The notes under the pieces were generated by a model that saw only the letters and a program-made list of their open reading frames with translations, did no database searches and had not been told where the DNA came from. A stretch of DNA of 64,000 bases, from positions 13,105 through 77,104 of the forward strand of contig DENL01000035.1 in the NCBI GenBank assembly GCA_002359655.1, written 5' to 3'. The translations under genes and the position numbers were made by a program. Origin of the DNA: Rickettsiales bacterium UBA2645 (GTDB taxonomy: Bacteria; Pseudomonadota; Alphaproteobacteria; Rickettsiales; UBA1997). Below are positions 3,679 through 52,282 of this stretch, piece after piece (position 1 is the first letter of the stretch; each line of letters begins with the position of its first letter).

Positions 3679-4926
3679 ATGTCTAATCGCATTCAAAACG
3701 ATTTCGAAAAATCAATTACTGAAAAATCAAAAGTCGCCAAATGGATCAATGATCGTTTGCCAATTATTGATACGCTTGAGGATACTCTTTTTAAACATCC
3801 TTATCCAAAAAATTTAAGCTATTGGTGGAACTTCGGATCAATTGCTGGTATTGCTTTGGTAGTGCAAATTTTGAGCGGACTTTTCTTGTCAATGCACTAT
3901 GTTGCCAACACCGAATTTGCCTTCAATTCAGTTGAACATATAATGCGCGATGTGCGTTATGGCTGGCTGATTCGCTATATTCACGCCGTTGGTGCTTCGA
4001 TGTTTTTTGTAGCACTTTACGCGCATATTACTCGTGGCCTTTATTATGGCTCTTATAAATCACCGCGCGAACTTTTATGGTGGGTTGGAGTGATAATCTT
4101 TTTACTGACTATGGCCACAGCCTTTATGGGATACGTCTTGCCTTGGGGACAAATGAGTTTTTGGGGTGCAACTGTAATTACCAATTTATTTTCAGCTTTG
4201 CCAATTGTTGGAAAATCAATCGTAACTTGGCTGTGGGGCGGTTATTCTGTCGATAATCCAACACTTAATCGCTTTTTCTCGCTGCACTTTTTAATGCCGT
4301 TTTTAATTGTTGGCATTGTTTTACTGCACCTTGTTGCTCTTCACACAGTTGGTTCTAACAATCCTACCGGCGTTGAAATTAAAACTAAAAATGACTCGAT
4401 TCCTTTCCATCCTTATTTCACCATCAAAGATATGGTGGGGTTTGTGTTATTCTTTTTGATTTTTGGCTATTTCTTATTTTTCTATCCAAATGCTCTTGGT
4501 CACCCAGACAACTATATTCCAGCAAATCCAATGGTAACGCCAGCTCACATCGTTCCTGAGTGGTACTTTTTACCTTTCTACGCAATTCTGCGAGCCGTTC
4601 CAGATAAGCTTGGCGGTGTTTTGATGATGTTTGGTGCGATTGCTATGTTATTTGCCCTACCCTTTTTGGATCGCAGTAAAGTCAGATCTGGAGCTTATCG
4701 CCCGCTTTTTCAAAAATTCTTTTTTGTTTTCATCATCAACTTTGCTTTTTTAGGTTGGTTAGGAAAATCCCCAGCAGAAGGCTGGTATATCTGGGCTTCT
4801 CGCTTTGCCACCTTTTATTACTACGCTTACTTTTTAATAATTTTACCAAATTTGCCAAAGTTTGAAAAAACTCTTCCCCTTCCAGAGTCAATTGCAGAGG
4901 ATTTTAAGAATAAACATAACCATTAA
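3679..4926 (+). CDS. petB: Cytochrome b
   Basis: The 415-aa polytopic protein has the [18 protein letters not shown] and [13 protein letters not shown] signatures. Confidence 0.95.
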
Positions 4927-8581: not shown

Positions 8582-10552
8582 GTGACTAGGAAAATAAAAA
8601 ATCCTCGCGACGAATTTCGCTGCTCTTGGGGCAAAATTCTGATAATTTTTGCTAGCTTATCTTTTTTTTTACGCACATTTTTTTTCGTTAAACAAAGAGC
8701 AGAAATCGACTTTTCAATTCTTTCTTTATTGGAAGCTTATGCAATTGGATTTTTTTTCGATATACTCGCTCTTGCCTACATAGCTCTTCTTCCGCTGACT
8801 TATTATACTTTTGCTCCAAGCAAGTTTTTCAACTCTAAAAAACACCAAACCGCCAATTGTATTTTTTATTTTATTTTTCTCTTCGTAATTATTTTCTCAG
8901 TTTTTTCGGAAATTACTTTCTGGGATGAATTCCAAACCCGCTTTAATTTCATTGCCGTTGATTACTTAATCTACACAACAGAAGTAATTGCCAACATCAT
9001 CGAGTCTTATCCGATGGCATTGTTGCTCAGCTTAATTACAATAATTTCTGGCACGATTTTCTTTTTCACTTACAAAAAAATTGTTGTTGCTAAACAAGAA
9101 AATTTTTTCTGCCGCCTGAAAAAATTCGTGATTTACGCAGCTGCTTTAGCAATCGCATTTTTTGCAGTTGATAGTTCAAAAGTTACAAGAATTTCAGCAA
9201 ATAATTATGTTAACGAAATCGCTGCAAACGGTATTTATCAACTCTTCTCAGCATATCGTAACAACCAGATTGATTACGACACTCTTTACGCCAGCGAAGA
9301 TTTAGAAGCTGCAACCAAAAATCTACGTAACTTAATTTCCAAGCAAGAGCCGCGTTCAAAATTTTTAAATGAAGACGATATTGCACGCTTAGTTCCTCAG
9401 TCAAAAGCTGGTACAGAAAAAAAATATAATATTATTTTTGTTTCAATTGAGAGCTTGAGTGCTGATTTTATGAAGACATTTGGTAACGCAGAAAATATCA
9501 CGCCAAATCTTGATGCTTTAGCAAAACAAGGATTACTTTTTACCCATTTGAAAGCGACTGGAACACGCACAGTTCGAGGGCTTGAAGCTTTATCTCTGTC
9601 AATTCCTCCAACTCCAGGAAATTCAATTATACGCCGTCCAAATAACGAAAATCTTTTTAACATTTCCAGCCCGCTTATTTATCGCGGTTACGATGCAAAA
9701 TTCCTCTACGGTGGCGATGGATATTTCGATAATATGAATTACTTCTTCGGCAATAACGGCTTTGAAATTGTCGATCGTGCAAAATTTTCTGAAGACGAAA
9801 TAACATTCTCCAACGCTTGGGGCGTTGCTGATGAAGACTTATTCAACAAGGCCATAAAAGAAGCTGATAAATCTTTCGCAGCACATACGCCTTTCTTGAA
9901 CTTTATCATGACCACTTCCAACCATCGTCCTTTTACGTATCCCGATGGAAAAATTGATATTGATTCCAAAACAGGTCGCAATGGCGCAGTGAAATATACC
10001 GACTATGCAATTGGAAAATTAATCGAAGAAGCCAAGAAAAAACCATGGTTTGATAAGACAATTTTTGTTTTCGTTGCTGATCATTGCGCTGGCTCTGCAG
10101 GCAATACTGATGTGCCTTTGTGGCGCTATCAAATTCCAGCAATTTTTTACGCACCAAAAATTATCAAGCCGCAAATCTTTACAAAAAATGTTAGCCAAAT
10201 TGATTTGGCCCCAACTTTGATGGGCATTTTAAATTTATCTTACAAATCTAAATTTTTTGGCACTGATGTTTTAAATAATCACAAAACCATCAATCAGCAT
10301 TCTTTTGTCAGCACTTACTCTGATGTTGGCTATTTCAAAGGTGATAAGCTCTATTTATTAAAACCAAAAAAAGAAAAAAAAGTTTTTGATGTCACAATCA
10401 AAGGCTATGGCTGGAAATCTTCGCAAGAAACCGTCACCAAAGATTATGACGAAAAAGAAATGAGCGAAGCAATCGCTTATTATCAAGTTGCAAGCCATCT
10501 ATTTAAAAACGAAAAACTCAAAAATTTCTCTTCCACTACAGCAAATCAATAG
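8582..10552 (+). CDS. LTA-synthase / sulfatase (alkaline phosphatase superfamily) membrane protein, phosphoglycerol-transferase-like
   Basis: It has an N-terminal multi-TM region followed by a sulfatase domain (IIFVSIESLSADF, GTRTVRG, SNHRPFTYP, ADHC). The start codon is GTG. Confidence 0.8.
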   Translation: MTRKIKNPRDEFRCSWGKILIIFASLSFFLRTFFFVKQRAEIDFSILSLLEAYAIGFFFDILALAYIALLPLTYYTFAPSKFFNSKKHQTANCIFYFIFLFVIIFSVFSEITFWDEFQTRFNFIAVDYLIYTTEVIANIIESYPMALLLSLITIISGTIFFFTYKKIVVAKQENFFCRLKKFVIYAAALAIAFFAVDSSKVTRISANNYVNEIAANGIYQLFSAYRNNQIDYDTLYASEDLEAATKNLRNLISKQEPRSKFLNEDDIARLVPQSKAGTEKKYNIIFVSIESLSADFMKTFGNAENITPNLDALAKQGLLFTHLKATGTRTVRGLEALSLSIPPTPGNSIIRRPNNENLFNISSPLIYRGYDAKFLYGGDGYFDNMNYFFGNNGFEIVDRAKFSEDEITFSNAWGVADEDLFNKAIKEADKSFAAHTPFLNFIMTTSNHRPFTYPDGKIDIDSKTGRNGAVKYTDYAIGKLIEEAKKKPWFDKTIFVFVADHCAGSAGNTDVPLWRYQIPAIFYAPKIIKPQIFTKNVSQIDLAPTLMGILNLSYKSKFFGTDVLNNHKTINQHSFVSTYSDVGYFKGDKLYLLKPKKEKKVFDVTIKGYGWKSSQETVTKDYDEKEMSEAIAYYQVASHLFKNEKLKNFSSTTANQ

Positions 10553-10646
10553 CTCTGAATTAGGTGATAAATTTTTTTGGTGATACTTTGATTTCGGTTT
10601 TGATATGCTGCTTTTTTCCACTTTTACTCGCACAAGTTTATTTTAA

Positions 10647-12488
<1,842 letters not shown>

Positions 12489-12620: not shown

Positions 12621-13007
12621 ATGTCCATAAACTCATTACTATCTCTCATAGAAATCATCAAAAGTATCCTATCTCTAAAAGATAAAAGAGAAGCCTGTCT
12701 CAGAAATTGGATTAGGTTCTTAGATCAGAAATTTTCAAAAGATGATTTTCTTCGACTTAAATCGAAAACAGAAAAACTTTACCCTAAATATTTTGGCAGC
12801 AAAAAAATTAGGAAGCGTCTAGAAAAAGTCATGTGGTCAGATTTAAATACGGATAATGGTAAGAACCCTAATCATATCCCACTTGAAGAGCTTATATCAG
12901 CAATGGGTAACTTTCTAAAAAAGAACTCAGACGAAATATCTGATATGCTTCACAAACCAGAACAAATAGACTGGTCTAAACACTTCAGCTTTTTCCCGAA
13001 TTCTTAA
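12621..13007 (+). CDS. Hypothetical protein
   Basis: A 128-aa ORF with no recognisable motif. It is co-oriented with the following DUF3800 gene. Confidence 0.45.
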   Translation: MSINSLLSLIEIIKSILSLKDKREACLRNWIRFLDQKFSKDDFLRLKSKTEKLYPKYFGSKKIRKRLEKVMWSDLNTDNGKNPNHIPLEELISAMGNFLKKNSDEISDMLHKPEQIDWSKHFSFFPNS

Positions 13008-41141: not shown

Positions 41142-41381
41142 ATGAAAAAAATTTCATTAATCCTTGCTGTAATTTCTCTTTTTGCTACTGCTGCTCAAGC
41201 TGCTACTCCAGCTGCTAAAGCTGAAGTTAAAGCTGCTACAGCAACTGAAGCTGCTCCAGCTAAAGCTACTACTCCAGCAGTAGAAGCTGCTAAAACTGAA
41301 GTGAAAGCTCCAGCTAAAAAAGCTCATCACAAAAAAGCTAAAAAAGCTGAAGAAAAAGCTGAAGAAAAAACTGCTAACTAA
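41142..41381 (+). CDS. Small secreted Ala/Lys/Glu-rich low-complexity protein
   Basis: The 79-aa ORF has a signal peptide (MKKISLILAVISLFATAAQA) followed by AKAEVKAA...KKAHHKKAKKAEEKAEEK. A strong terminator follows. Confidence 0.55.
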   Translation: MKKISLILAVISLFATAAQAATPAAKAEVKAATATEAAPAKATTPAVEAAKTEVKAPAKKAHHKKAKKAEEKAEEKTAN

Positions 41382-41511: not shown

Positions 41512-41586
41512 GCCGATTTAGCTCAGGGGTAGAGCTACTGTCTTGTAAACAGTGGGTCGGGAGTTCGAATCTCTCAATCGGCACCA
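41512..41586 (+). tRNA. tRNA-Thr (anticodon UGU); island attachment site
   Basis: GCCGATTTAGCTCAGGGGTAGAGCTACTGTCTTGTAAACAGTGGGTCGGGAGTTCGAATCTCTCAATCGGCACCA has anticodon loop CUUGUAA. Confidence 0.9.
41540..41586 (+). repeat. attL (3' 47 nt of the intact tRNA-Thr)
   Basis: GTCTTGTAAACAGTGGGTCGGGAGTTCGAATCTCTCAATCGGCACCA. Confidence 0.85.
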
Positions 41587-41946
41587 CTTCTTTCTAAGTT
41601 CCATACCATTTACAAAATTATCAAAATTCGTAAATGGGACACTCTCGGGACAATAAATAACAAAAATCCTTCATAACCTTTTGTAACGAAGAAAGAAATC
41701 TTTGTCTTGTCTATCTTGCAAATTTTTTGTCTTAGCAAAGAATTTTCCTGATAGAAACCATTTAGCTTATTTTAGCTTTTCTGAAGAATTTGTCCCTTGA
41801 ATGTCCCACAGAATAGAATCCTTATCTAACAATCCTTTATTTAAAAGTTTAAAGCAAATATTTCCTACTGATTAGTTATCAGTTGTTGCCATTTATTGTT
41901 ATTATTTCTAAGTTTTTCTCAATTCTTAGAATTAAATTAATCAAAA

Positions 41947-43011
41947 ATGGCAACCATTGAAAAACGAACCAGCTTAGATGGCACAACCTCTTATCGTGCA
42001 AAAGTAAGGCTAAAAGGCTATCCCGCACAAAATGCCACTTTTTCAAGATTAACTGATGCTAAAAAATGGGTTCAAGACACTGAATCAGCAATTCGCGAAG
42101 GCAGACACTTCAAAACCAACGCTGCAAAAAAACACACTGTAAAAGAATTAATTAATCGCTACTTCGAAGAAATATTATCTCGCAAAATAAAAGGAGTTAG
42201 TGACCAAACAACTCAACTCAATTGGTGGAAAGATAAAATTGGCAGCTTCCTACTTTCTGACATAAACACCGCGCTCATCATTGAAAATCGCAACAAACTT
42301 TTATCTGAAAAAAGTTTGCGCAAAGAAGGAAAACGAAGCAACGCAACCGTCAATCGCTATTGCGCATCATTAAGCCACTGCTTCACAATCGCCGTAAAAG
42401 AATGGGAGTGGTTACAAGAAAACCCAATGTTAAAAATGAAGAAACTAAAAGAACCACGCGGCAGAGTTAGATTTTTAAGCGATGAAGAAAGAGAAAGATT
42501 GCTCACAGTTTGCAAAGAAAGTCAAAGCCCTTTTCTTTATGTTTTAGTTGTTTTGGCAATCAGCACGGGAGCCAGAAAGATGGAGCTTTGCAGCCTTAAT
42601 TGGGAAGATGTCGATTTGAAGCGCGGCATGATAATTTTGCACGACACCAAAAACGGTGACAGAAGAGCATTGCCTTTGGTTGGCATTGCCAAAGATTTAA
42701 TGAAAGAGCATTACAAAAACCGCAACGAAAACACCAATCTAGTTTTCCCAGCAAAAAATTTAATCGATCCAATTGACATTCGCACACCTTTTGAAACTGC
42801 TCTAATCAAAGCAGAAATAAAAGATTTCAGATGGCATGATTTACGCCACTCTTGCGCAAGTTATTTGGCAATGAATGGCGCAACGCTGGCAGAAATTGCA
42901 GGCGTGTTGGGACACAAAACTTTGTCGATGGTTAAGCGCTATTCTCACATTTCAGAAGCACATACGGCAAAGGTGGTTGAGAGAATGAATAGTAAGATTT
43001 TTGGGGTATAA
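41947..43011 (+). CDS. int: Tyrosine-type site-specific integrase
   Basis: It has catalytic-domain motifs (ARKMEL... RWHDLRHSCASYLAMNG...LGH......Y) and an N-terminal SAM-like domain. Confidence 0.9.
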   Translation: MATIEKRTSLDGTTSYRAKVRLKGYPAQNATFSRLTDAKKWVQDTESAIREGRHFKTNAAKKHTVKELINRYFEEILSRKIKGVSDQTTQLNWWKDKIGSFLLSDINTALIIENRNKLLSEKSLRKEGKRSNATVNRYCASLSHCFTIAVKEWEWLQENPMLKMKKLKEPRGRVRFLSDEERERLLTVCKESQSPFLYVLVVLAISTGARKMELCSLNWEDVDLKRGMIILHDTKNGDRRALPLVGIAKDLMKEHYKNRNENTNLVFPAKNLIDPIDIRTPFETALIKAEIKDFRWHDLRHSCASYLAMNGATLAEIAGVLGHKTLSMVKRYSHISEAHTAKVVERMNSKIFGV

Positions 43012-43012
43012 A

Positions 43013-44086
43013 ATGAACGTTAAAAAAAATAACTTTCTAAAAGAATATCCAAGTGAGTTTTGTGGGCTGCTTGAATCATTCCAAAAAATTGGAAAACAAA
43101 TTTTTCAAGATTCGTGGGAAGGTGATGAGTGGGAGTTTAGTGATGGTAGTTATTTAGAGCCTAAAGAGGCAAAGCGAAGATTAGCGATGTATTGGAAAGA
43201 TGCTTGCGAAGAAGTTGAGGGTTGGACTAGTAGTCAAGAATTCAAAAAGAAGGCAATTGAGTGGATTACTCAAAAGAATACATGCGACGTTCATGCAAAA
43301 AGGGGCTATCCCTTAGATTCTTGGGATGTATCAGCTAGTGAAGCTAAAAAAATTACAATAAATCGGAAAGAGATTGATGATTGGATTCTTTGCGAGAGGG
43401 ATCGGGCGATTGAAAACCTATATCAAAGCAAAATAAATCTGGGACAAAACCCAAATTCTCTTTCAGATTTTAGGCACCTAAGGGATTCGATCGCAAAGGA
43501 TAAGGATTATGTCAAAAAATACAAAAAAAATTTAATGTGTGCTGAAACTATTGAAAGCCTTAGAAAAATAATAAGAGAAAATTTTGTGAGAGCAGAAATA
43601 CATGATAAGATTAACAAACATTTGCCGCAAAAAACTTTAGATCCAGAAAGAGTTGACGTTTTCAAATTTGCATTAAAAGAAAATCACATCAGATGCTTAG
43701 GGGGTTCTGGAAATTACGATTTAAAAGTTCCTAGAAAGCAGTTGGATCACGTTTTAAGGACTGGAAAAAAGTGGGCTGATAAAGACATTAATTTAAAGGC
43801 TAATGCTGTAAAGAAAGAAGCTACAGTCCCAAGTCGATTTACTAAAATGATAAAATCTCTTAAGGAAAAACCAGAATATGATTCGTGGGAAAAATTATGG
43901 AATTTTCTTTATATTGAAGCGGGCAAGACAGCTTCAGATAATCAATCTTTTAGAGACAAATACGAGCTTCTTGAATTTGAAATAAAACAAGGCGTGCCGC
44001 AGGCGATTAGATTTAAAACTGTTGAAAGCAAAAGAGAAAGCTCAATGCGGAAATCCTCTTTTAAAAGAGCTTATACCAAAGCTTAG
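43013..44086 (+). CDS. Hypothetical protein (357 aa), translationally coupled to int
   Basis: The ATG at 43013 follows directly after the int stop TAA (43009-43011). The product is charged and soluble with no recognisable motif. Confidence 0.55.
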   Translation: MNVKKNNFLKEYPSEFCGLLESFQKIGKQIFQDSWEGDEWEFSDGSYLEPKEAKRRLAMYWKDACEEVEGWTSSQEFKKKAIEWITQKNTCDVHAKRGYPLDSWDVSASEAKKITINRKEIDDWILCERDRAIENLYQSKINLGQNPNSLSDFRHLRDSIAKDKDYVKKYKKNLMCAETIESLRKIIRENFVRAEIHDKINKHLPQKTLDPERVDVFKFALKENHIRCLGGSGNYDLKVPRKQLDHVLRTGKKWADKDINLKANAVKKEATVPSRFTKMIKSLKEKPEYDSWEKLWNFLYIEAGKTASDNQSFRDKYELLEFEIKQGVPQAIRFKTVESKRESSMRKSSFKRAYTKA

Positions 44087-44090
44087 TTGT

Positions 44091-44170
44091 TATCCGCAAT
44101 CTATCCGCAAACTTTATCCTGCGCCATTCCACTCTTCGCGCTATCCGCAATCTATCCGCGGCCTACCCGC
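44091..44170 (+). repeat. Iteron-like array of TATCCGC units with ~11-bp phasing
   Basis: TATCCGCAATCTATCCGC occurs at 44091-44108 and 44142-44159. Degenerate units are TATCCTGCGC at 44115 and TACCCGC at 44164. An adjacent 7-bp palindrome ATTTCAT-CAA-ATGAAAT lies at 44171-44187. Confidence 0.7.
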
Positions 44171-44275
44171 ATTTCATCAAATGAAATTATCGAAATTTAG
44201 ATATTAGATCGTTGCCGAGTCAGCAAGAACACTGCTGGTTTTTCTTCAATTATTAATAACTAAATTTTTATAAAA

Positions 44276-44503
44276 ATGTCACAAGAAAGTAATCGTCAAA
44301 AAGTCAGACTACTAACCGTAAATCAATTTATCGAAGCTCATCCATTTATGACTTCTGGAGGATTGAGGGCTCTAATTTTTCAATCTCGTTTTAACGATCT
44401 CGATAAGAAAAAAGTAATAAAGCGAATCGGAAGAAAAATTCTTTTAGATGAGGCGGCTTTTTTTGAATGGCTTAACGAAAGAAGTGAGGTCAACCATGTC
44501 TAG
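44276..44503 (+). CDS. Excisionase/AlpA-like helix-turn-helix (HTH_17-type) protein
   Basis: The 75-aa ORF has LLTVNQFIE...GLRALIF...KRIGRKILLDEAAFFEWLNE, which matches the Xis/AlpA-type pattern. Confidence 0.6.
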   Translation: MSQESNRQKVRLLTVNQFIEAHPFMTSGGLRALIFQSRFNDLDKKKVIKRIGRKILLDEAAFFEWLNERSEVNHV

Positions 44504-44948
44504 AACAGCAAAAAAGCTCGTGGTTTCCAAGTTTGGAGACGTAGGAAATCACGAGCCAAACCCCTTTAAATTCGAACTAAAAGGCTCAGCAATACTAAGA
44601 AATGATTCCCCTAACTGCAACCAAAAATCCAAAAGATTGGTTCTGTGGTTCAGGCTAACCAAAAACGACCAAGAGGTGGTTTTTGTTCTTAAGGGTCAAA
44701 AAGCTAAAACCCTTAAGGCTTTGATAGAAAAAGGCGATAAAGGCTGCACGGCTTTGGAAATATCCAAAACTTTTGCCCTGCGTTTAAGTGAGTATATCAG
44801 GGCTTTACGCAGAGATTGCATTTGCGGTGGTTATAATCTCAACATAACAACCAACAAAGAGCCTAATCCAGTTGGATGGCATGGTAGATACTTGCTAAAT
44901 GACGATGTTGAGCTCTTAGAAAATGATGTTTTTGGAGGTGTGAAATGA
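44496..44948 (+). CDS. Winged-helix (HTH_39-like) DNA-binding protein
   Basis: The ATG at 44496 has a GAGG Shine-Dalgarno sequence and overlaps the upstream stop. GCTALEISKTFALRLSEYIRALRRD...WHGRYLL resembles the HTH_39 family. Confidence 0.5.
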   Translation: MSRTAKKLVVSKFGDVGNHEPNPFKFELKGSAILRNDSPNCNQKSKRLVLWFRLTKNDQEVVFVLKGQKAKTLKALIEKGDKGCTALEISKTFALRLSEYIRALRRDCICGGYNLNITTNKEPNPVGWHGRYLLNDDVELLENDVFGGVK

Positions 44949-45937
44949 AGCGAAAAATTCCTCAAACATTTGAAGAGACGATTGCCGAATGTGATAGGGC
45001 TTTAAGTTTGGGCATAACCAACACCGAAGACCTCTATAAACCACTAGCAATTGCACTTAACGGTCATGAATTTTTATCAAAGAAATTGCCAAAAAGAGAG
45101 TTAATAATCTCGCCCTGCTTACCAAAGCAGGGTTTGGCAATGATTTTTGCTAAAAGAGGCGTTGGTAAAACATATTTTTCTTTGCTTCTTGCCTGCAAGA
45201 TTGCTAGCGGCAGAGATGTCTTTAAAAATAGATGGAAGGTTAATAAAGAGTGGAAATTGCTTTATATTGACGGTGAAATGCCAGCAAGTGATATGCAAGA
45301 AAGATTAAAAACCTTGATTAGCGAAGATACTAAAAAAGAAAATCTCTCTATCATAACTCGCGACCTTCAGAAAAACGGCATAATGCCTAATATTTCTAGT
45401 CAAGAAGGACAGGAAGCTTTAGAGCCACATATTCAAAAAGCTGATGTTATCATTATTGATAATCTTTCAACTCTAGCAATGTGTGGCAAAGAAAATGAAG
45501 CAACTAGTTGGGATCCAATTGCACAATGGGCTTTAAGACTTCGCTCAATTGGTAAAACAATTATTTTCATTCATCATGCTGGTAAAGATAATAATCAACG
45601 AGGCACTTCTAAGAAAGAGGATATTTTAGACACGGTAATAAATCTAAGACATCCATCAAACTATAGTAGCGAAGAAGGCGCAAGATTTGAAGTTCACTTT
45701 GAAAAATCGCGTGGCTTTGCTGGTGAAGAAGCTAAAGCTTTTGAGGTTAAGCTTGAAATAAAAAATGATAAAGCACTCTGGCAAACTAATGAAATAGAAG
45801 ATTTGGAGCTTGAGAGAGTAGTCGAATTAAGTCATGATGGTTTGAGTCAAAGAGATATTGTTAACGAGACTGGTATTAGCCTTTCAAAAGTTAATCGGAT
45901 ATTGAAGAGACGCAAAAAAGAACTTAACAAAACTTAA
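44945..45937 (+). CDS. RecA-fold AAA_25/RepA-like ATPase with C-terminal HTH
   Basis: It has Walker A AKRGVGKTY, Walker B VIIIDNLS, IFIHHAGKDNNQRGTSKKED, and a C-terminal LSQRDIVNETGISLSKVNRILK. Its start overlaps the upstream stop as ATGA. Confidence 0.75.
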   Translation: MKRKIPQTFEETIAECDRALSLGITNTEDLYKPLAIALNGHEFLSKKLPKRELIISPCLPKQGLAMIFAKRGVGKTYFSLLLACKIASGRDVFKNRWKVNKEWKLLYIDGEMPASDMQERLKTLISEDTKKENLSIITRDLQKNGIMPNISSQEGQEALEPHIQKADVIIIDNLSTLAMCGKENEATSWDPIAQWALRLRSIGKTIIFIHHAGKDNNQRGTSKKEDILDTVINLRHPSNYSSEEGARFEVHFEKSRGFAGEEAKAFEVKLEIKNDKALWQTNEIEDLELERVVELSHDGLSQRDIVNETGISLSKVNRILKRRKKELNKT

Positions 45938-45957
45938 CCTTTTAAGAGCTCAAAAAA

Positions 45958-45999
45958 TGTTTCACTGTTTCATTTCTTAAGGGATGAAACGGTGAAACA
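45958..45999 (-). terminator. 16-bp stem-loop; a terminator on the minus strand or a structured origin element
   Basis: TGTTTCACTGTTTCAT (45958-45973) pairs with ATGAAACGGTGAAACA (45984-45999) with one G-U. A T-run follows only when read on the minus strand. Confidence 0.4.
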
Positions 46000-46188
46000 A
46001 AATAACAAATGTCATTTAACTTACTGCCAAAAGCCTTCTAATGCCATACCCACCCCCCTATTTCAAAAAATAGATGAACCACCCCATGCACACAAAGCAC
46101 TTTTAGGGTAGAGATTTTTTTCCAATTTTTTACTCTAACCCTTAAATCAAATCCCAAATTCACCACAACAATTTAACCAATCTCAACA

Positions 46189-46470
46189 ATGACTCATGCT
46201 AGATTTAACATCAATAACGCTAAGAAATGCTTAGCCACAACCAAAAGAAGTAAAACACTTTGCCAAGCTCCCGCAATGAAAAATAGCAGATGTCGATTGC
46301 ACGGCGGAAAATCAACAGGGGCGAGAACTAAAGAGGGATTAAAGAAGCTAAAAGAAATCAATTATCGAAATGGTTGCAGCACTAAGGAAGCAATCGAATA
46401 TCGCAAAGAATCCAGAGAATTTTTAAGGCTATGCAATTTACTTTTTGAGATTGGGTATTTTCACAGATAG
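46189..46470 (+). CDS. HGG-motif protein (CRLHGGKSTGARTKEG)
   Basis: The 93-aa ORF has the HGGxSTG motif typical of a small family found on alphaproteobacterial mobile elements. Confidence 0.55.
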   Translation: MTHARFNINNAKKCLATTKRSKTLCQAPAMKNSRCRLHGGKSTGARTKEGLKKLKEINYRNGCSTKEAIEYRKESREFLRLCNLLFEIGYFHR

Positions 46471-46474
46471 AAAA

Positions 46475-46687
46475 CTACAACAGCTCTGAAGGCTTAATTT
46501 TTAGAAAGGCCGCTATTTTGTGGATGGTAAACAATGAGGGATTTCTCTTGCCGCGCTCAAGCAATCCAATGTAAGTTCTGTCAAACTCCAACGACAAAGC
46601 CAAGGCCTCTTGGCTCAATCCAGTAGCCAATCGCGCCTCTTTTAGTTTTTCCCCGAAATGTATAAGAATTTTGTCTTTATCAACCAT
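46475..46687 (-). CDS. XRE-family helix-turn-helix transcriptional regulator
   Basis: The 70-aa ORF has LKEARLATGLSQEALALSLEFDRTYIGLLERGKRNPS. Confidence 0.85.
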   Translation of the reverse strand: MVDKDKILIHFGEKLKEARLATGLSQEALALSLEFDRTYIGLLERGKRNPSLFTIHKIAAFLKIKPSELL

Positions 46688-46693
46688 AATAGG

Positions 46694-46722
46694 TTGACAA
46701 TTTCAGCTTCCTGATTTTTAGT
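46694..46722 (+). promoter_or_regulatory. Promoter candidate for the cargo operon, in the XRE/cargo divergent region
   Basis: TTGACA (46694-46699), 17-nt spacer, TTTAGT. It lies immediately next to the XRE start codon. Confidence 0.3.
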
Positions 46723-46760
46723 CGACGGACTGATAGTCTCTAACAACTACTAACGCATTC

Positions 46761-47306
46761 ATGAAAAGAATTATATTAGTCACTATCTGTTTTCTCGCCT
46801 CTGCCGAAGTCCAAGCTGGATTTGGAGGAGGAGTTCGTGGTTCTCCTTATGACCTTTACAACTTACCAATAGCTCAAGTAGAAAGACTTTTGGTTGATTG
46901 CGAAAAAAAGTATTATCCTGAGTATTATGCAACCACTCCATTTCCTGAAAGATACCATGCCTTACAAACTCGCCAAAAACTACATTACTGCATGAGAAAA
47001 TTAATGCAGACTGGTGATTTTGAAGAAGATAAATGGTATAGAATAGGGAACATAAACAATGGAAATGAAAATAGATATGAGCAGGTAGTTGGCCATGAGT
47101 TGCCAGACGAATATTACTTAATCCCAATTGAGAATTATTCTGAAAGAATGGAATTTCTCGGTAAAGGTATGGATCAGAAATATGCTGAAGATGAGGAAAA
47201 AAGACGACAAGAGCTTAAAAAGAAATTCGGTTGGGCTGCAAATATTGTTGGTTTCTTCAACCCTATTCTAGGCGGCGTTTTCACTGGCGTTGGCGCGGCG
47301 CAATAA
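46761..47306 (+). CDS. Secreted hypothetical protein with a Gly-rich hydrophobic C-terminus
   Basis: It has a signal peptide (MKRIILVTICFLASAEVQA). The C-terminal GWAANIVGFFNPILGGVFTGVGAAQ is glycine-zipper-like. Confidence 0.6.
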   Translation: MKRIILVTICFLASAEVQAGFGGGVRGSPYDLYNLPIAQVERLLVDCEKKYYPEYYATTPFPERYHALQTRQKLHYCMRKLMQTGDFEEDKWYRIGNINNGNENRYEQVVGHELPDEYYLIPIENYSERMEFLGKGMDQKYAEDEEKRRQELKKKFGWAANIVGFFNPILGGVFTGVGAAQ

Positions 47307-47349
47307 ATAAACACTTAAACTCAATTAACCCAATTTAATAAAAGAATTT

Positions 47350-48003
47350 ATGAAAAAAATTATTACATTATTGTTTTTGGTAACGACCGCTAATTGTAGT
47401 CTTGAGAGATACAGCATGACTCCTGAAAAATGGGTAAAGGATTCAAATGGCAGAATGGTTCACGATACACTCATTACCAGTGTTAGAACGTATGAAATCG
47501 AATGGAAAAATCAGGAAGAAGACGCAAAGAAAGCTATTTTTTACGAAAAGGCTGTCAGAAAGGATTTTGAAAGACAGCTAGAAAGATTAAGCAAAACCAT
47601 ATATCATAATTCGTTGCCGTTAATCGACTACAATAGCCCTTCTAATGAGAATAAAAAGAACTTACATTCATCTTTTAAAAAAGTTGAATCATACTTTCTA
47701 AGTACTCTTGAGGATTATCAGAGCGGCTTCCCCATTCCAAAATTTGATTATTCTTATTACGCAGAAAGAGGATACGAGAAGAAGAGCATAATTGCGCGAG
47801 CATCAGTTTCAGAAGAGCGTTTTGCAAAGTTCTTAGAAATTGTTGAGAACGATTATAAGCGCGATATTTTAAAACAATCTTTTGACAAGGATGGGATGGA
47901 AATGGCTAATCAAACTATAAAATGTATCATAAGACTATCTAGTCAACTTGCAGAAATTGAACTTGTTCGCGAGGAAATAAAAAATCAAAGTTGTCGTATT
48001 TAG
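47350..48003 (+). CDS. Secreted hypothetical protein, possibly a lipoprotein
   Basis: The N-terminus MKKIITLLFLVTTANCS looks like a signal peptide with a non-canonical lipobox. The rest is charged and helical-looking. Confidence 0.55.
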   Translation: MKKIITLLFLVTTANCSLERYSMTPEKWVKDSNGRMVHDTLITSVRTYEIEWKNQEEDAKKAIFYEKAVRKDFERQLERLSKTIYHNSLPLIDYNSPSNENKKNLHSSFKKVESYFLSTLEDYQSGFPIPKFDYSYYAERGYEKKSIIARASVSEERFAKFLEIVENDYKRDILKQSFDKDGMEMANQTIKCIIRLSSQLAEIELVREEIKNQSCRI

Positions 48004-48118
48004 GCAACACAACTTATAAGAAGAGTTGACTCAATCATTAGACAAAATTCATAGAAATTAAACAATTAGGGTCGTGGAACGCTTACTCACAAATTTTGCA
48101 AATAAATATCTATTAAAC

Positions 48119-48601
48119 ATGAAAAATTCACTGTTATTCATAGTAGTTTTTTCTTTTTTTATTAACTCATGCAAAGAAGAAAAATCAGCCACTAAAAATA
48201 CAACTTTAGAAAATAGTCATTATTACTCTTTCAAGGATGGTCTCCTATATGGATACGAACAGAAACCAAACTCAGATGGTTCAGAAAATCCATTAATAAT
48301 GTTTCAATATGCTGGTCAAAGAGATGATGTTTATCAACTATTCTATTCTCAAGATAATCACATAGTAAATGTGGTTGAATGCAAAAAGCCTTGTGAATTT
48401 ATGAAAAATAAGACTTATTACAATACCGAGGGAGGTAATGTAATTTCTAAAAATTATTTTAGAGCCTCCGATAAAACCATAGCTAAGCTTGCTATACTTG
48501 ATGCCATAAATGGAAATCTTGAACAAAGCGTTGTTGTAAAGAATGGCAAAAATTATGGTGTATGGTTTGGACAAAGGGTTGAGTTAACTCTGATAAAATA
48601 A
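48119..48601 (+). CDS. Putative lipoprotein, hypothetical
   Basis: The ATG at 48119 gives MKNSLLFIVVFSFFINSCKEEK, a lipobox-like INSC. Confidence 0.55.
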   Translation: MKNSLLFIVVFSFFINSCKEEKSATKNTTLENSHYYSFKDGLLYGYEQKPNSDGSENPLIMFQYAGQRDDVYQLFYSQDNHIVNVVECKKPCEFMKNKTYYNTEGGNVISKNYFRASDKTIAKLAILDAINGNLEQSVVVKNGKNYGVWFGQRVELTLIK

Positions 48602-48649
48602 CAAATGATAAAACAACAAAACTAATTTTGTACAAACTGCAATCAGATT

Positions 48650-48793
48650 ATGCCTGCAAGCACAAATAAGGTTAATCACACATTGCTATCAATCTTGACA
48701 ATTGGATGGTGGGCTATTGCTTGTTTTATAATATGTTTAGGAACTCTGAATGCAAACTTCTATTGTGTAAAATGTGGAAGCAAAACTAGATAA
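48650..48793 (+). CDS. Small (47 aa) membrane peptide with a C-terminal CxxC
   Basis: My own translation reads MPASTNKVNHTLLSILTIGWWAIACFIICLGTLNANFYCVKCGSKTR. It is below the ORF-track size cut-off. Confidence 0.3.
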   Translation: MPASTNKVNHTLLSILTIGWWAIACFIICLGTLNANFYCVKCGSKTR

Positions 48794-48940
48794 GTTTGTA
48801 ATTTCTATGGGACACTCTTGGGACACTCGCTCACAAATTTTGGCAAAAAATCAAAGATATTGACAATAACCATAATTCTCTAGAACCTCGGTAATACTGT
48901 TGTTATTTATTTTTATGTGTTGTCGTTTGTGCGTTCGCTC

Positions 48941-48987
48941 GGTCTTGTAAACAGTGGGTCGGGAGTTCGAATCTCTCAATCGGCACC
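48941..48987 (+). repeat. attR (duplicate of the tRNA-Thr 3' 47 nt, without the 5' half)
   Basis: It is identical to 41540-41586. The flanking bases differ on both sides. Confidence 0.85.
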
Positions 48988-49113
48988 AGCATTCACTCTC
49001 ACTGGCTTCGGCTGGCAAGTTAGCTTTATCTGGAATGTTGACAGTAGATTGTCAGAGCAAATGCTGCACTTCATAGTTCTAGTTGGAGAAGGCTTGCACT
49101 AATCTAATTCCTC

Positions 49114-50627: not shown

Positions 50628-51320
50628 TTAGTTTATCTCGATCACCGAAACATTTCTTCCGCAGTCCTTCTCTCCCAAATGTGTTGATCTTCTGAAACTA
50701 AAAAAATCTTTTCCATTTTCATAAGTATCAATTTTTAGGTTTTTGATTTTTTCAACTCCAGCTTCACACAATTTTTTTTCCACATAAGAAGGTAAGTCGA
50801 ACTGATATTTATCCGAGCTTGTCCCCTCTTTGAAAAAATTTTTATTAGTCAAATCTTCAATTAAAAAATCATCCAAAAACTCTTGTGAAACTTGGTAAGA
50901 TTTTTGCTGAATCATTGGACCAATCACAGCTTGAATATTTTGCGCACCTAGTTTCTTTATCTCATCAACCGTTGATAAAATCACGCCAGATTTGGCTCCA
51001 CGCCAACCAGCATGAATTGCAGAGATAATATTTTTTTCTTCATCAAAAAGTAAAATCGGTGCACAATCGGCAGTAACCACTCCAATAACAATATTTTTTA
51101 AATTAGTTACAAGCGCATCAGCTTTGGGTAAGTTCTGATCGCCATAAATTTTTTCTAACGAGTCAACCACAAATACTTCGCTACTATGAATTTGGTTTAC
51201 GAATAAAACTTTTTGACTCTGAAAATTTTTTTCAAGCAACATTTTCTTAAGATCAAATCGATTTGAAAGTGGTCGATCAATAATACAATCTTTACCAAAA
51301 AAGTGATATTTTATACTCAT
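50628..51320 (-). CDS. pgeF: YfiH/PgeF (laccase-domain, purine nucleoside phosphorylase-like) protein
   Basis: It matches the family pattern: VTADCAPILL, HAGWRG, and C-terminal SFRR...GRN. Confidence 0.85.
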   Translation of the reverse strand: MSIKYHFFGKDCIIDRPLSNRFDLKKMLLEKNFQSQKVLFVNQIHSSEVFVVDSLEKIYGDQNLPKADALVTNLKNIVIGVVTADCAPILLFDEEKNIISAIHAGWRGAKSGVILSTVDEIKKLGAQNIQAVIGPMIQQKSYQVSQEFLDDFLIEDLTNKNFFKEGTSSDKYQFDLPSYVEKKLCEAGVEKIKNLKIDTYENGKDFFSFRRSTHLGEKDCGRNVSVIEIN

Positions 51321-52282
51321 ATTCTCTCTCTAAAAAATCGTAATTTTGCTAAATATTCTTGTGGATTTTTGATATTCACCAAAGAATCTTTCGGAGTAAA
51401 AAACATGTCGTGAAGCCTTGTCAATAAAAAGCGCATCGCAGCTCCAACCAAAGCTATTTTTAAGAAAGATTTTTCTAGCTCAGAAAATTTTCTTATCGAT
51501 TCATAACCTCGTAGTATTTCGTCAAAATGGTTTTGTAAAAAATTATTTTTTTCATCAAAGCACCAAGCATTTACAGCTATGGCAAAATCAAAAATCAATG
51601 CATCATTTGCGGCAAAATAAAAATCAATTACGCCGCTTAAATTAGCATTTTCATCAAAAAAAACATTATCTGGAAAAAGATCGAGATGAGCTGCATATGT
51701 TGGCAAATCATGCTTCCAAGAAGATTTTAAAAAACTTAAATTTTCAGTAATTTCACCAAGTAAGTTTTTTTGATAATTTTCAATAAGGTTTTCAAACTTG
51801 GAAAATAGAGCGCTCCAGCCATTAATGCCTAAATCATTTAGGCGCGACATTTCAAAATCCTGAGCTGCTAAATGCAATTTCGCCAAGATTTTACCAACTT
51901 CAAAACAGTGATTTATATTGATATTATCATAATAACCATCTTGACGGGATTTTAGCGTTGCGCCACTCAGAAAAGTAACGATAGTAGATTTTTTTTCTTT
52001 CAGATCAGAAATTATCAAGCCTGAATTATCAAAGATCGGGCGCGGACAAGGAATTTTTTTTTCGGCAAGATGCAATTTAAAATTTATGAAAAATGGCAAA
52101 TCATTTTTATCAATTCGCGATTCAAAAATTGTTAAAATAAATTTTCCTTTCTCGGTTTCTAAAATGAAATTTGAGTTATCGATTCCATCAATGATTTCTT
52201 TGAGAGAGATCAAATTTCCTAAATCGTATTTTCTTAAATGTTGTGAAATTTCTTGCTCAGAAATTTTTGTGTAAACTGCCAT
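51317..52282 (-). CDS. thrB: Homoserine kinase, type II (APH/choline-kinase fold)
   Basis: It has G..NSNF near the N-terminus and HLDLFPDNVFF...GVIDFYFA, the ThrB type II pattern. Confidence 0.8.
   Translation of the reverse strand: MAVYTKISEQEISQHLRKYDLGNLISLKEIIDGIDNSNFILETEKGKFILTIFESRIDKNDLPFFINFKLHLAEKKIPCPRPIFDNSGLIISDLKEKKSTIVTFLSGATLKSRQDGYYDNININHCFEVGKILAKLHLAAQDFEMSRLNDLGINGWSALFSKFENLIENYQKNLLGEITENLSFLKSSWKHDLPTYAAHLDLFPDNVFFDENANLSGVIDFYFAANDALIFDFAIAVNAWCFDEKNNFLQNHFDEILRGYESIRKFSELEKSFLKIALVGAAMRFLLTRLHDMFFTPKDSLVNIKNPQEYLAKLRFFRERI

Follow-up and report, generated by a model that had tools for sequence, protein, structure and literature searches.

Introduction

In PICMI115, a phage-inducible chromosomal minimalist island (PICMI), the genes are ordered as an integrase gene, a hypervariable gene that overlaps it (iolg/icg) and is needed for excision, alpA, a gene of unknown function, a primase gene and a hotspot for cargo (PMC10803314). 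The element lacks packaging genes; a virulent helper phage packages it in the form of concatemers (PMC10803314). A second type of element, the tycheposon, is described by a partial-tRNA att repeat, a tyrosine recombinase beside the tRNA gene, xis, a helicase/primase module and exchangeable cargo, in planktonic hosts (10.1101/2020.12.28.424599). Here we analyze a stretch of 64,000 nucleotides (the window) from Rickettsiales bacterium UBA2645 (GenBank assembly GCA_002359655.1, contig DENL01000035.1, positions 13,105 to 77,104), in which a tRNA-Thr gene carries an integrated island of ~7.4 kb (41587-48988). Small-genome bacterioplankton of lakes mostly lack plasmids and conjugation, and gene exchange among them is poorly known.

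The region is a real insertion: both relatives and a near-identical population are found without the island. Moreover, the island is very probably a mobile integrative and replicative element. Judged by gene order and protein similarity, it belongs with other small elements in tRNA genes of freshwater alphaproteobacterial metagenome-assembled genomes (MAGs), which together make up a family not described before, and in its build it resembles the smallest phage satellites known. The family offers a concrete and testable vehicle for gene exchange, with many species, at least three tRNA genes and a cargo of Fic, restriction-modification and surface lipoproteins. With it, the hosts of PICMI/tycheposon-type elements, so far marine Vibrio and cyanobacteria, would come to include freshwater Alphaproteobacteria.

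Insertion site and boundaries

The target of integration is the tRNA-Thr(UGU) gene at 41512-41586 on the forward strand (ARAGORN; Rfam RF00005, 70.2 bits). A repeat search revealed a perfect direct repeat of 47 nt, the first copy of which (attL core, 41540-41586, forward strand) runs from the anticodon loop to the CCA end, and the second of which (attR core, 48942-48988, forward strand) lies 7402 nt further on. In L055 (sequences compared with the window are cited by L numbers) the same island end, core and host flank are found at the attR side. The 47-mer is the sole long direct repeat in the interval of 40-50.5 kb, and the probability of a random 47/47 match within 64 kb is negligible (~1e-19). 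The bases that flank the copies are unlike (GCTACT before and CTTCTT after the core at attL, GCTCG and GCATTC at attR), and the repeat is therefore exactly 47 nt long, from anticodon loop to CCA. A preliminary description of this DNA, made from the sequence alone, had reported perfect att repeats with differing sequence beside each copy; the 47/47 identity, the attL coordinates and the difference of the outer bases at both ends hold, and the second copy, then placed at 48941-48987, was one base off.

The locus has the general features of a tRNA-borne island, in that the element is flanked by copies of the tRNA 3' end, with the integrase gene beside the intact tRNA gene. Once the island is integrated, the 3' 47 nt of the tRNA are supplied by the att core. 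The predicted attP junction reads ...TGTGCGTTCGCTCG, 47-mer, CTTCTTTCTAAGTTCC..., and the predicted attB junction ...GGTAGAGCTACT, 47-mer, GCATTCACTCTCAC.... Identical attL or attR junctions occur in independent assemblies, namely a JGI 89-kb contig and a 99.5-kb contig (NCBI MAG proteins NBV0669x), and further independent junctions are present in the ENA scaffold L007 (attL) and the JGI contig L003 (attR). Because the junctions recur in independent assemblies, a duplication created during assembly, which the preliminary description had considered as a possible source of the repeat, is excluded. The GC profile showed no contrast in composition between the island and its flanks, and an Rfam scan found nothing beyond tRNAs.

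Evidence for insertion and mobility

A set of 30 species-level GTDB genomes was fetched via PlsC, the product of the right-hand neighbour gene (59-79% identical). They are MAGs from lakes and bear the titles Rickettsiales, Pelagibacterales or Alphaproteobacteria bacterium. In ~25 of the 30 the site is empty, with lpd, tRNA-Thr(tgt) and plsC contiguous and a gap of 15-220 bp between the tRNA gene and plsC. In addition, a metagenome scan with the bare 47-mer yielded 12 contigs, among them nine empty sites, one attL and one attR. The nine empty sites derive from species with a PlsC that is only 49-82% identical. Since the 47-mer stands at empty sites across such divergent species, the target core is widely shared. 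The arrangement anticipated for an unoccupied site, tRNA-Thr followed directly by plsC, is thus the common state in both sets.

Presence and absence of the island also differ between close relatives. The empty contig L053 and the occupied contig L055 align over 3423 nt at 99.36% identity, starting exactly at base 1 of the 47-mer. To the left of the 47-mer L053 has the 5' half of the tRNA gene, and L055 has an island end that is nearly identical to window positions 48902-48941. The two are an attB/attR pair inside one species, and the insertion is recent somewhere in the population. Of the earlier suggestion of recent or still-active mobility, the first part is borne out by this presence/absence difference; continuing activity we only infer, as neither an attP junction nor a circular form was found in IMG/VR or among the 12 metagenome contigs. 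A scan of JGI metagenomes with the exact attR/attB junction gave no matches, the flank being too strain-specific. The Logan contigs L002, L004, L006, L049 and L065, which end inside the repeat with an overlap of ~30 nt, were rejected as empty or circular forms, as such ends reflect a branch of the de Bruijn graph.

The same tRNA-Thr site is occupied in another species by a related island of 8.3 kb (L015), with integrase, orf4 and orf5 identities of 79%, 64% and 70%. This island is bounded by its own repeat of 45(+9) nt, which matches the slightly different tRNA-Thr of that host. In L050, the attR copy (12920-12970) has two mismatches to the resident tRNA-Thr (4058-4132), both in the T-arm/acceptor part. 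That these lie 3' of nt 25 implies an attP from a different donor and a crossover within the first 25 nt of the core. L050 also has three extra open reading frames (ORFs; 169, 189 and 173 aa) between the tRNA gene and int, which may be the remnant of a tandem insertion.

The core genes for integration and predicted replication

Between the repeats there are 10 convincing ORFs, nine of them on the forward strand and all uninterrupted. The preliminary description had been right about their integrity, and its count of 11-12 becomes these 10 plus one or two small ones. The first gene encodes a tyrosine integrase of 354 aa (41947-43011, forward strand; PF00589 E=1e-31, Int_N PF24624, phrog_1 E=2e-64) and starts 360 nt inside attL, in line with the earlier placement of an integrase just inside this repeat. 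The motifs GARKME, HDLRHS and GHK...RYSH, as read from the translation, are intact (R, H-x-x-R, H...Y).

The second gene, orf2 (43013-44086, forward strand; 357 aa), abuts int with a gap of 1 nt and has no family match in Pfam, PHROGs or NCBIfam. Only seven homologues were found, and these have the C-terminus alone in common; the N-terminal parts are hypervariable and unrelated between islands. The C-terminal domain of ~86 aa is rare, with four matching clusters among 1.84e9 representatives. AlphaFold2 (AF2) models it at a pLDDT of 80-93 with the topology H-H-H-E-E-E-H, and the rest of the protein is not confidently modelled. A Foldseek search of the PDB with the whole model gave nothing at E<1. 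We propose that orf2 encodes an iteron-binding regulator or excision cofactor; in position it corresponds to iolg/icg of PICMI.

The small protein encoded by orf3 (44276-44503, forward strand; 75 aa) is predicted to be a winged-helix DNA-binding protein (AF2 pLDDT 81.5, topology b-H-H-b-b-H) and occupies the position of Xis/AlpA. In BFVD the best match (E=2e-6, TM 0.8) is to an uncharacterized protein of 69 aa from an uncultured phage, and the weaker matches that carry a name are excisionase, Excise and PrtN activators. The matches in the PDB are all winged helix-turn-helix (HTH) regulators, none of them significant. Four of the nine orf3 homologues touch HTH_17 (PF12728), the excisionase/AlpA-type HTH, below threshold (best E=1e-3); for the window protein the value is E=0.2.

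The next two genes appear to form the replication module. The product of orf4 (44496-44948, forward strand; 150 aa) is an HTH_91 winged-helix protein (PF22324 E=1.6e-14), and its gene directly precedes the replicase gene, either AAA_25 or Prim-Pol, in all relatives. The product of orf5 (44945-45937, forward strand; 330 aa) is a RepA/DnaB-like hexameric-helicase ATPase (AAA_25, PF13481 E=6e-28) with a C-terminal HTH. Both Walker motifs, A (GVGKT) and B, are present, RSF1010 RepA is the closest relative of solved structure (1g8y, E=5.5e-6), and the C-terminal 66 aa exceed the cut-off of HTH_24. At E<=1e-10 the family counts 2146 members; most bear the name 'putative DNA primase/helicase', and fusions to Prim-Pol, Toprim or DnaB_N occur among them. 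Isolated phages (29% at best) and 72,556 plasmids (one partial match) almost entirely lack this family. Orf5 is taken to be a replicative helicase or initiator, on the strength of these domain and motif matches. The name 'RNA polymerase sigma-70' given by one source is a mis-annotation caused by the C-terminal HTH alone, and its re-identification as a replicative helicase is a gain for the annotation.

Searches of the island proteins against Pfam, PHROGs, NCBIfam and PADLOC matched no capsid, terminase, lysis, relaxase, type IV secretion system (T4SS), transposase or defence-system families. The protein-level search proposed earlier thus returned an integrase, an Xis-like protein and a replication module, and the profiles agree with the preliminary description that transposase, capsid, terminase and conjugation genes are lacking.

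Candidate cis-acting sites

Pairs of a short motif lie inside both ends of the island. On the attL side there is a direct pair, TGGGACAC-N3-GGGACA (41635-41652, forward strand), ~50 nt inside the repeat, and an inverted pair, TGTCCC-N3-ATGTCCCA (41792-41808, reverse strand), ~205 nt inside it. On the distal arm, TGGGACAC-N3-TGGGACAC (48808-48826, forward strand) is found ~120 nt before attR. Of the five exact copies of TGGGACAC in the window, four lie inside the island. The direct pair recurs at the same offset in L015, L046, L050 and L064, and as a GGGGCAC variant in L049 and L065. Inverted pairs equivalent to that at 41792-41808 are present in L015 (1843-1861) and L064, and equivalents of the pair before attR in L015 (9782), L050 (12789, 12800) and L064. 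We infer from this positional conservation that the GGGACAC pairs are arm-type sites of the integrase.

Right after orf2 lies an iteron array (44091-44170, forward strand), with four exact copies of TATCCGC plus degenerate copies in an 11-bp register; none of 100 shuffles reached the TATCCGC count of the window. The same iterons are found in L064, L065 and L067, and the C-terminal ~86 aa of orf2 are 72-80% identical among these and the window. L015, the orf2 of which is unrelated, has AAATCATAAC iterons, and L046 and L050 have TCCCAYC iterons and orf2 C-termini that are related to each other. L046 is 94% identical to the window in orf3 and 89% in orf5, yet has other iterons and another orf2. 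Conversely, L064, in which a Prim-Pol gene takes the place of the helicase gene, retains the TATCCGC iterons. The iterons therefore track the C-terminus of orf2 and not orf3, orf4 or orf5. The array may be where the C-terminal domain of orf2 binds, as an operator or origin. From the co-variation of the integrase-adjacent protein and the iterons, a testable hypothesis follows on what the 'iolg' genes of minimalist satellites do.

Between the iterons and orf3 a hairpin, CAGCA-N7-TGCTG followed by a T-run, was read by eye (44222-44247, forward strand). An equivalent hairpin with T-run is present in L064, L065, L067 and L048, and a consensus scan did not flag it. The int-orf2 transcript may be terminated or attenuated here. 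A scan for promoters and terminators gave results not above those of shuffles.

Another conserved element, the inverted repeat GTTTCACTGTTTCA-N12-TGAAACGGTGAAAC (45959-45998, without strand), starts 22 nt after the stop of orf5. In each island with a helicase gene this GTTTCAC repeat is found once in this position, and L064, the Prim-Pol variant, lacks it. The arms hardly vary in sequence, though the neighbouring protein is only 64-89% identical. A test for an RNA hairpin gave no support for one, in that covariation is lacking (the score is reached by 255 of 500 shuffles) and a conserved T-run is found on neither strand. The near-invariant arms without covariation or T-run point to a protein-binding site on DNA. 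Moreover, on GC-rich contigs of IMG/VR, helicase genes that are 42-43% identical have inverted repeats on their flanks that are similarly built (14-nt arms, spacers of 21-23 nt) and of other sequence. In the islands of the SaPI type (Staphylococcus aureus pathogenicity islands) the origin adjoins rep. By analogy, the GTTTCAC repeat is proposed to be an origin or a loading site for the HTH of the helicase. A second copy of the repeat was observed ~1.7 kb downstream of the first in L046 (8985-9024) and L047 (11733-11772), where it lies past the three-gene minus-strand cargo block of the tRNA-Arg island.

A family of related islands

Further members of the family were found on the contigs from which the orf5 and orf2 homologues derive. 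They have a constant order of genes: int, a gene of 270-514 aa without Pfam match, a protein of 70-83 aa, HTH_91, and AAA_25 with HTH. The second gene overlaps or abuts int, with 4-nt ATGA overlaps in L015 and L046. The islands measure 7.4-8.8 kb and are found in tRNA-Thr(UGU), in tRNA-Arg(ACG) (L046/47, L065) and in tRNA-Lys(CUU) (L048/49, with a 51-nt repeat). The core genes and the cis-repeats are kept across species and tRNA targets. The cargo of the relatives comprises Fic, HSDR_N, a 792-aa fusion of methylase, Eco57I and S-subunit, XRE regulators and small uncharacterized proteins.

Two members are informative on the modular make-up. In L064 (JGI Ga0620600_0001694) the AAA_25 slot is taken by a gene for Prim-Pol plus PriCT_1 (9691-10779), and the island is otherwise collinear and in the same tRNA-Thr site. 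The swap supports a replication role for this slot. In L061 the integrase is 95% identical to that of the window, but orf4 and orf5 are only 63% identical; the modules therefore recombine.

Comparison with known mobile elements

The likeness to PICMI115 (PMC10803314) is clear from the gene order, which in the island is int, an int-abutting gene, an AlpA/Xis-like gene, an unknown gene, a replicase gene and cargo. Both elements are small (6.1 kb for PICMI, 7.4-8.8 kb for the family), neither has capsid-remodelling or packaging genes, and both have cargo that includes defence-type genes, which are found here in the relatives. In agreement with the definition of PICMIs, a PF00589 integrase is contiguous with a gene of unknown function, as orf2 starts 2 nt past the int stop. 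For the AlpA component (PF05930 or PF12728) the fold of orf3 is consistent and its matches to PF12728 (E=0.2, and 1e-3 for the best homologue) are sub-threshold. There are also clear differences. PICMI has a DUF3987 (PF13148)/DUF5906 (PF19263) primase, whereas the family has AAA_25 (PF13481) or, in L064, Prim-Pol/PriCT_1. PICMI integrates next to fis, whereas the family uses tRNA-Thr, tRNA-Arg and tRNA-Lys. In addition, HTH_91 is a constant partner here, and the hosts are freshwater Alphaproteobacteria instead of Vibrionaceae.

All tycheposon features listed in the Introduction are likewise seen, from the partial-tRNA att repeat to the planktonic host (10.1101/2020.12.28.424599). In both systems, moreover, cargo-only and capsid-bearing relatives are linked via common integration and replication modules. 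The differences concern the host class and habitat, the targets (Thr-UGU, Arg-ACG and Lys-CUU) and the core proteins (HTH_91, AAA_25 with HTH, and orf2). In these descriptive features the island agrees with the cargo-carrying tycheposons.

With the phage-inducible chromosomal islands (PICIs) of Gram-negative bacteria and SaPIs the island shares an int gene at one end, a co-directional small putative regulator, and an initiator-helicase with a candidate cognate repeat beside its gene. Structural and lysis genes are lacking in both, and each island has a specific att site. However, the island has three of the five core components of a PICI, a 'Type C' that the authors of this definition treat as ambiguous (PMC10085698). 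Integrase and helicase are clear, and the regulator consists of a sub-threshold HTH_17 and an Xis-like fold. A capsid-morphogenesis gene and a small terminase are absent in the Pfam and PHROGs searches, with orf6 showing only the HGGxSTG motif of some small terminases (TerS).

More distant relatives do encode such genes. The IMG/VR contigs L039 and L040 (~9.7 kb, GC 65%) have int, three small ORFs and an AAA_25 helicase gene, followed by an HK97-type capsid, portal and large terminase (TerL); host genes begin ~9.7 kb from the contig start, beside tRNA-Leu. From its predicted genes, this is a capsid-forming PICI-like (cf-PICI-like) layout. The homology to the island covers int (39-43% identical) and the helicase with HTH (42-43%), and the helicase gene is again flanked by inverted repeats with 14-nt arms. 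The capsid, portal and TerL of L039/L040 are lacking in the island, and the tRNA-Leu site is another difference. Other IMG/VR relatives sit in larger phage-like contigs.

The remaining classes are more readily told apart. None of the capsid, portal, head-tail adaptor/connector and terL genes of cf-PICIs occurs in the island. The psu-delta-sid, epsilon and alpha primase-helicase proteins of P4-like satellites are unmatched, and the helicase is of the RepA type and not P4 alpha. The relaxase and T4SS families of integrative mobilizable elements (IMEs) and integrative conjugative elements (ICEs) are unmatched in the island and its relatives. As to prophages, structural, lysis and packaging genes are missing and 7.4 kb is far under the size of a phage genome. 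On predicted gene content the island is outside the marker definitions of PICI, PICMI, cf-PICI, P4-like satellite, IME, ICE and prophage; it is a small tRNA-targeting, hitch-hiking island that is probably self-replicating. This agrees with the preliminary description, which had favoured a satellite-like or mobilizable island over a prophage or ICE, given that an integrase, an Xis-like protein and a replication module are present and that capsid, terminase and conjugation genes are lacking.

Proposed mechanism and mode of transfer

The different elements can be combined into a working model. The integrase would recombine the 47-nt core that attP and the tRNA-Thr 3' end have in common, guided by the GGGACAC arm sites. 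The winged helix of Orf3 would act as directionality factor or activator of the Xis/AlpA type. The rare C-terminal domain of Orf2 would bind the adjacent TATCCGC iterons, and Orf2 may in this way control or assist excision and the expression of the orf3-orf4-orf5 operon. The excised circle would then be replicated by the HTH_91 protein together with the RepA-like helicase, the latter being loaded via its C-terminal HTH at the GTTTCAC inverted repeat beside its own gene. The right third of the island would represent exchangeable cargo: an XRE regulator, an HGGxSTG protein and three secreted proteins or lipoproteins.

As transfer genes are lacking, the island must hitch-hike. By analogy with minimalist satellites of the PICMI type, packaging by a helper phage may be the most likely route, a preference that we hold tentatively. 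A more specific version appears rather unlikely to us: the islands would be undescribed minimalist phage satellites of abundant freshwater Alphaproteobacteria in which orf2, as a counterpart of iolg, is a sequence-specific DNA-binding switch with a variable N-terminus that senses a helper-phage cue, the replicase slot is freely exchangeable between RepA-like helicase and Prim-Pol, each of which has a separate origin, and orf6 is a mini-TerS. As part of that same, rather unlikely proposal, the orf2 C-terminal domain would bind the island-specific iterons before the xis-replicase operon and the HGGxSTG protein would steer packaging by the helper.

Several observations weigh against mobility by means of a helper phage, or against parts of the working model. 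A helper phage, a pac or cos site, a capsid-remodelling gene and a full terS were not identifiable for the island. No attP junction or circular form was found, the 47-mer having no match in IMG/VR and none of this kind occurring among the 12 metagenome contigs. The island proteins diverge about as much as the host flank (int 75-85%, helicase 64-89% and plsC 73-81% identical), and given this host-like divergence a long residence with occasional loss is possible. Orf2 and the iterons may co-vary simply because they are physically linked, and the assignment of orf3 as Xis draws on fold and position, with HTH_17 sub-threshold. Finally, orf6 has just a 35-aa motif in common with TerS, it is absent from the other sampled islands, and stand-alone HGGxSTG proteins are also found on plasmids.

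An alternative without dedicated helper would be a tycheposon-like cargo element that excises and replicates, leaves the cell via vesicles, free DNA or generalized transduction, and has as its main role the shuttling of cargo into a tRNA-seeded island. The combination of partial-tRNA att repeat, tRNA-specific tyrosine recombinase, xis gene, helicase/primase module and exchangeable cargo, in planktonic hosts without conjugation, corresponds to the published tycheposons (10.1101/2020.12.28.424599); moreover, none of the sampled family members has a packaging gene, and the turnover of cargo is high. However, the order of genes is nearer to that of PICMI, capsid-encoding elements are among the relatives of the int and helicase modules, and the narrow size range of 7.4-8.8 kb is left unexplained. 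We regard this combined proposal, on both the route and the role, as possible and somewhat doubtful.

The preferred reading of a replicating island that is carried by a phage also has to be compared with conjugation and with decay. An integrative mobilizable element could be transferred by a co-resident ICE or conjugative plasmid via an unrecognized origin of transfer (oriT), possibly the GTTTCAC repeat, with the RepA-like protein processing the DNA. Helicases of the AAA_25/RepA type are indeed typical of mobilizable IncQ plasmids, RSF1010 RepA is the best solved match, and an inverted repeat beside a helicase gene could in principle be an oriT. Yet relaxase, coupling-protein and T4SS families occur in neither the island nor its relatives (Pfam, NCBIfam, PHROGs), the helicase family is nearly missing from the 72,556 plasmids, its relatives are fused to the replication domains Prim-Pol, Toprim and DnaB_N, and in L064 it is swapped for the replication enzyme Prim-Pol/PriCT, which makes this route improbable. 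Even less probable, to a degree that we give it hardly any credence, is a decaying prophage or capsid-forming satellite that has lost its structural genes and is now immobile and vertically inherited, with occasional deletion between the repeats. Distant relatives with capsid, portal and TerL, the host-like divergence of the island proteins and the failure to see attP would fit such a remnant. Against it, all ORFs are intact and the repeats perfect, and a compact five-gene core without fragments of structural genes recurs at three tRNA genes in many species with its cis-sites kept. Furthermore, modules are reshuffled (the helicase/Prim-Pol swap, and an integrase at 95% paired with a helicase at 63%), the attR of L050 holds foreign bases, and presence and absence differ at 99.4% identity.

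Cargo genes

The right-hand part of the island starts with orf6 (46189-46470, forward strand; 93 aa), an accessory gene for an HGGxSTG-domain protein (CxnC...CRLHGGKSTG; NF041373 E=7e-14). Its motif is 54-69% identical to the N-termini of ORF53 of Pasteurella phage Pm86 and gp1 of Bacillus phage Flasso, both small terminases of phrog_1889 (E=1e-24 to 1e-26). The gene for the former (L068, 3486-4076) lies directly before TerL and that for the latter (L069, 96-845) beside the pac site. The likeness of these motifs is a lead and not evidence for packaging. No close relatives of orf6 were found in IMG/VR, nor was any literature found on the NCBIfam 'HGGxSTG' motif. As a separate observation, the occurrence of the motif at the N-terminus of two phrog_1889 proteins suggests a Cys/His DNA-binding module in some TerS.

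The only minus-strand gene of the island, orf7 (46475-46687; 70 aa), encodes an HTH regulator of the XRE/Cro-C1 type (PF01381 E=2e-13; PADLOC 'control protein' E=5e-19). In PADLOC such generic XRE 'control protein' matches were the only ones, and no defence system was found. The last three genes, all on the forward strand and without family match, are orf8 (46761-47306; 181 aa), with an N-terminal signal peptide as read from the translation, orf9 (47350-48003; 217 aa), a probable lipoprotein (…LVTTANC), and orf10 (48119-48601; 160 aa from the annotated start), also a probable lipoprotein (…FFINSC). No relatives of orf8-10 were found outside this island lineage. Between orf10 and the distal arm sites there is an unannotated ORF of 47 aa (48650-48793). 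Its product is hydrophobic in the centre, has a CxxC at the C-terminus and weakly matches a LITAF-like zinc ribbon (E=0.02).

Other observations

A putative second island in L003 (5054-5524) was discarded, as it is an inverted copy of window positions 51232-51702 and thus a fold-back chimera of the assembly. In L017 and L019 (CANEUK010000003.1 and CANMEW010000001.1) plsC orthologues (71-73%) are present without tRNA-Thr, lpd or ccmE within 10 kb upstream, which indicates either a rearranged locus or a much larger insert.

In L053 and L055 an element of ~85 nt, similar in appearance to REP (repetitive extragenic palindromic) sequences or MITEs (miniature inverted-repeat transposable elements), starts ~40 nt into the att core and runs through the flank after attB (GCCTTCGCTCTTACGAGCTTCGGCTGGCAGG...). 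Copies occur in both orientations in L053 (280-367 and 1843-1929) and L055 (3249-3335 and 4819-4906); unlike these, the right flank in the window is single-copy within the window.

Just upstream of the tRNA-Thr gene, at 41142-41381, an Ala/Lys/Thr/Pro-rich protein of 79 aa is encoded that is annotated as hypothetical. It is made up of periodic repeats of 9, 12 and 15 nt (GCTGCTAAAGCT...), it has a histone-H1-like or low-complexity look, and its position is kept in the relatives.

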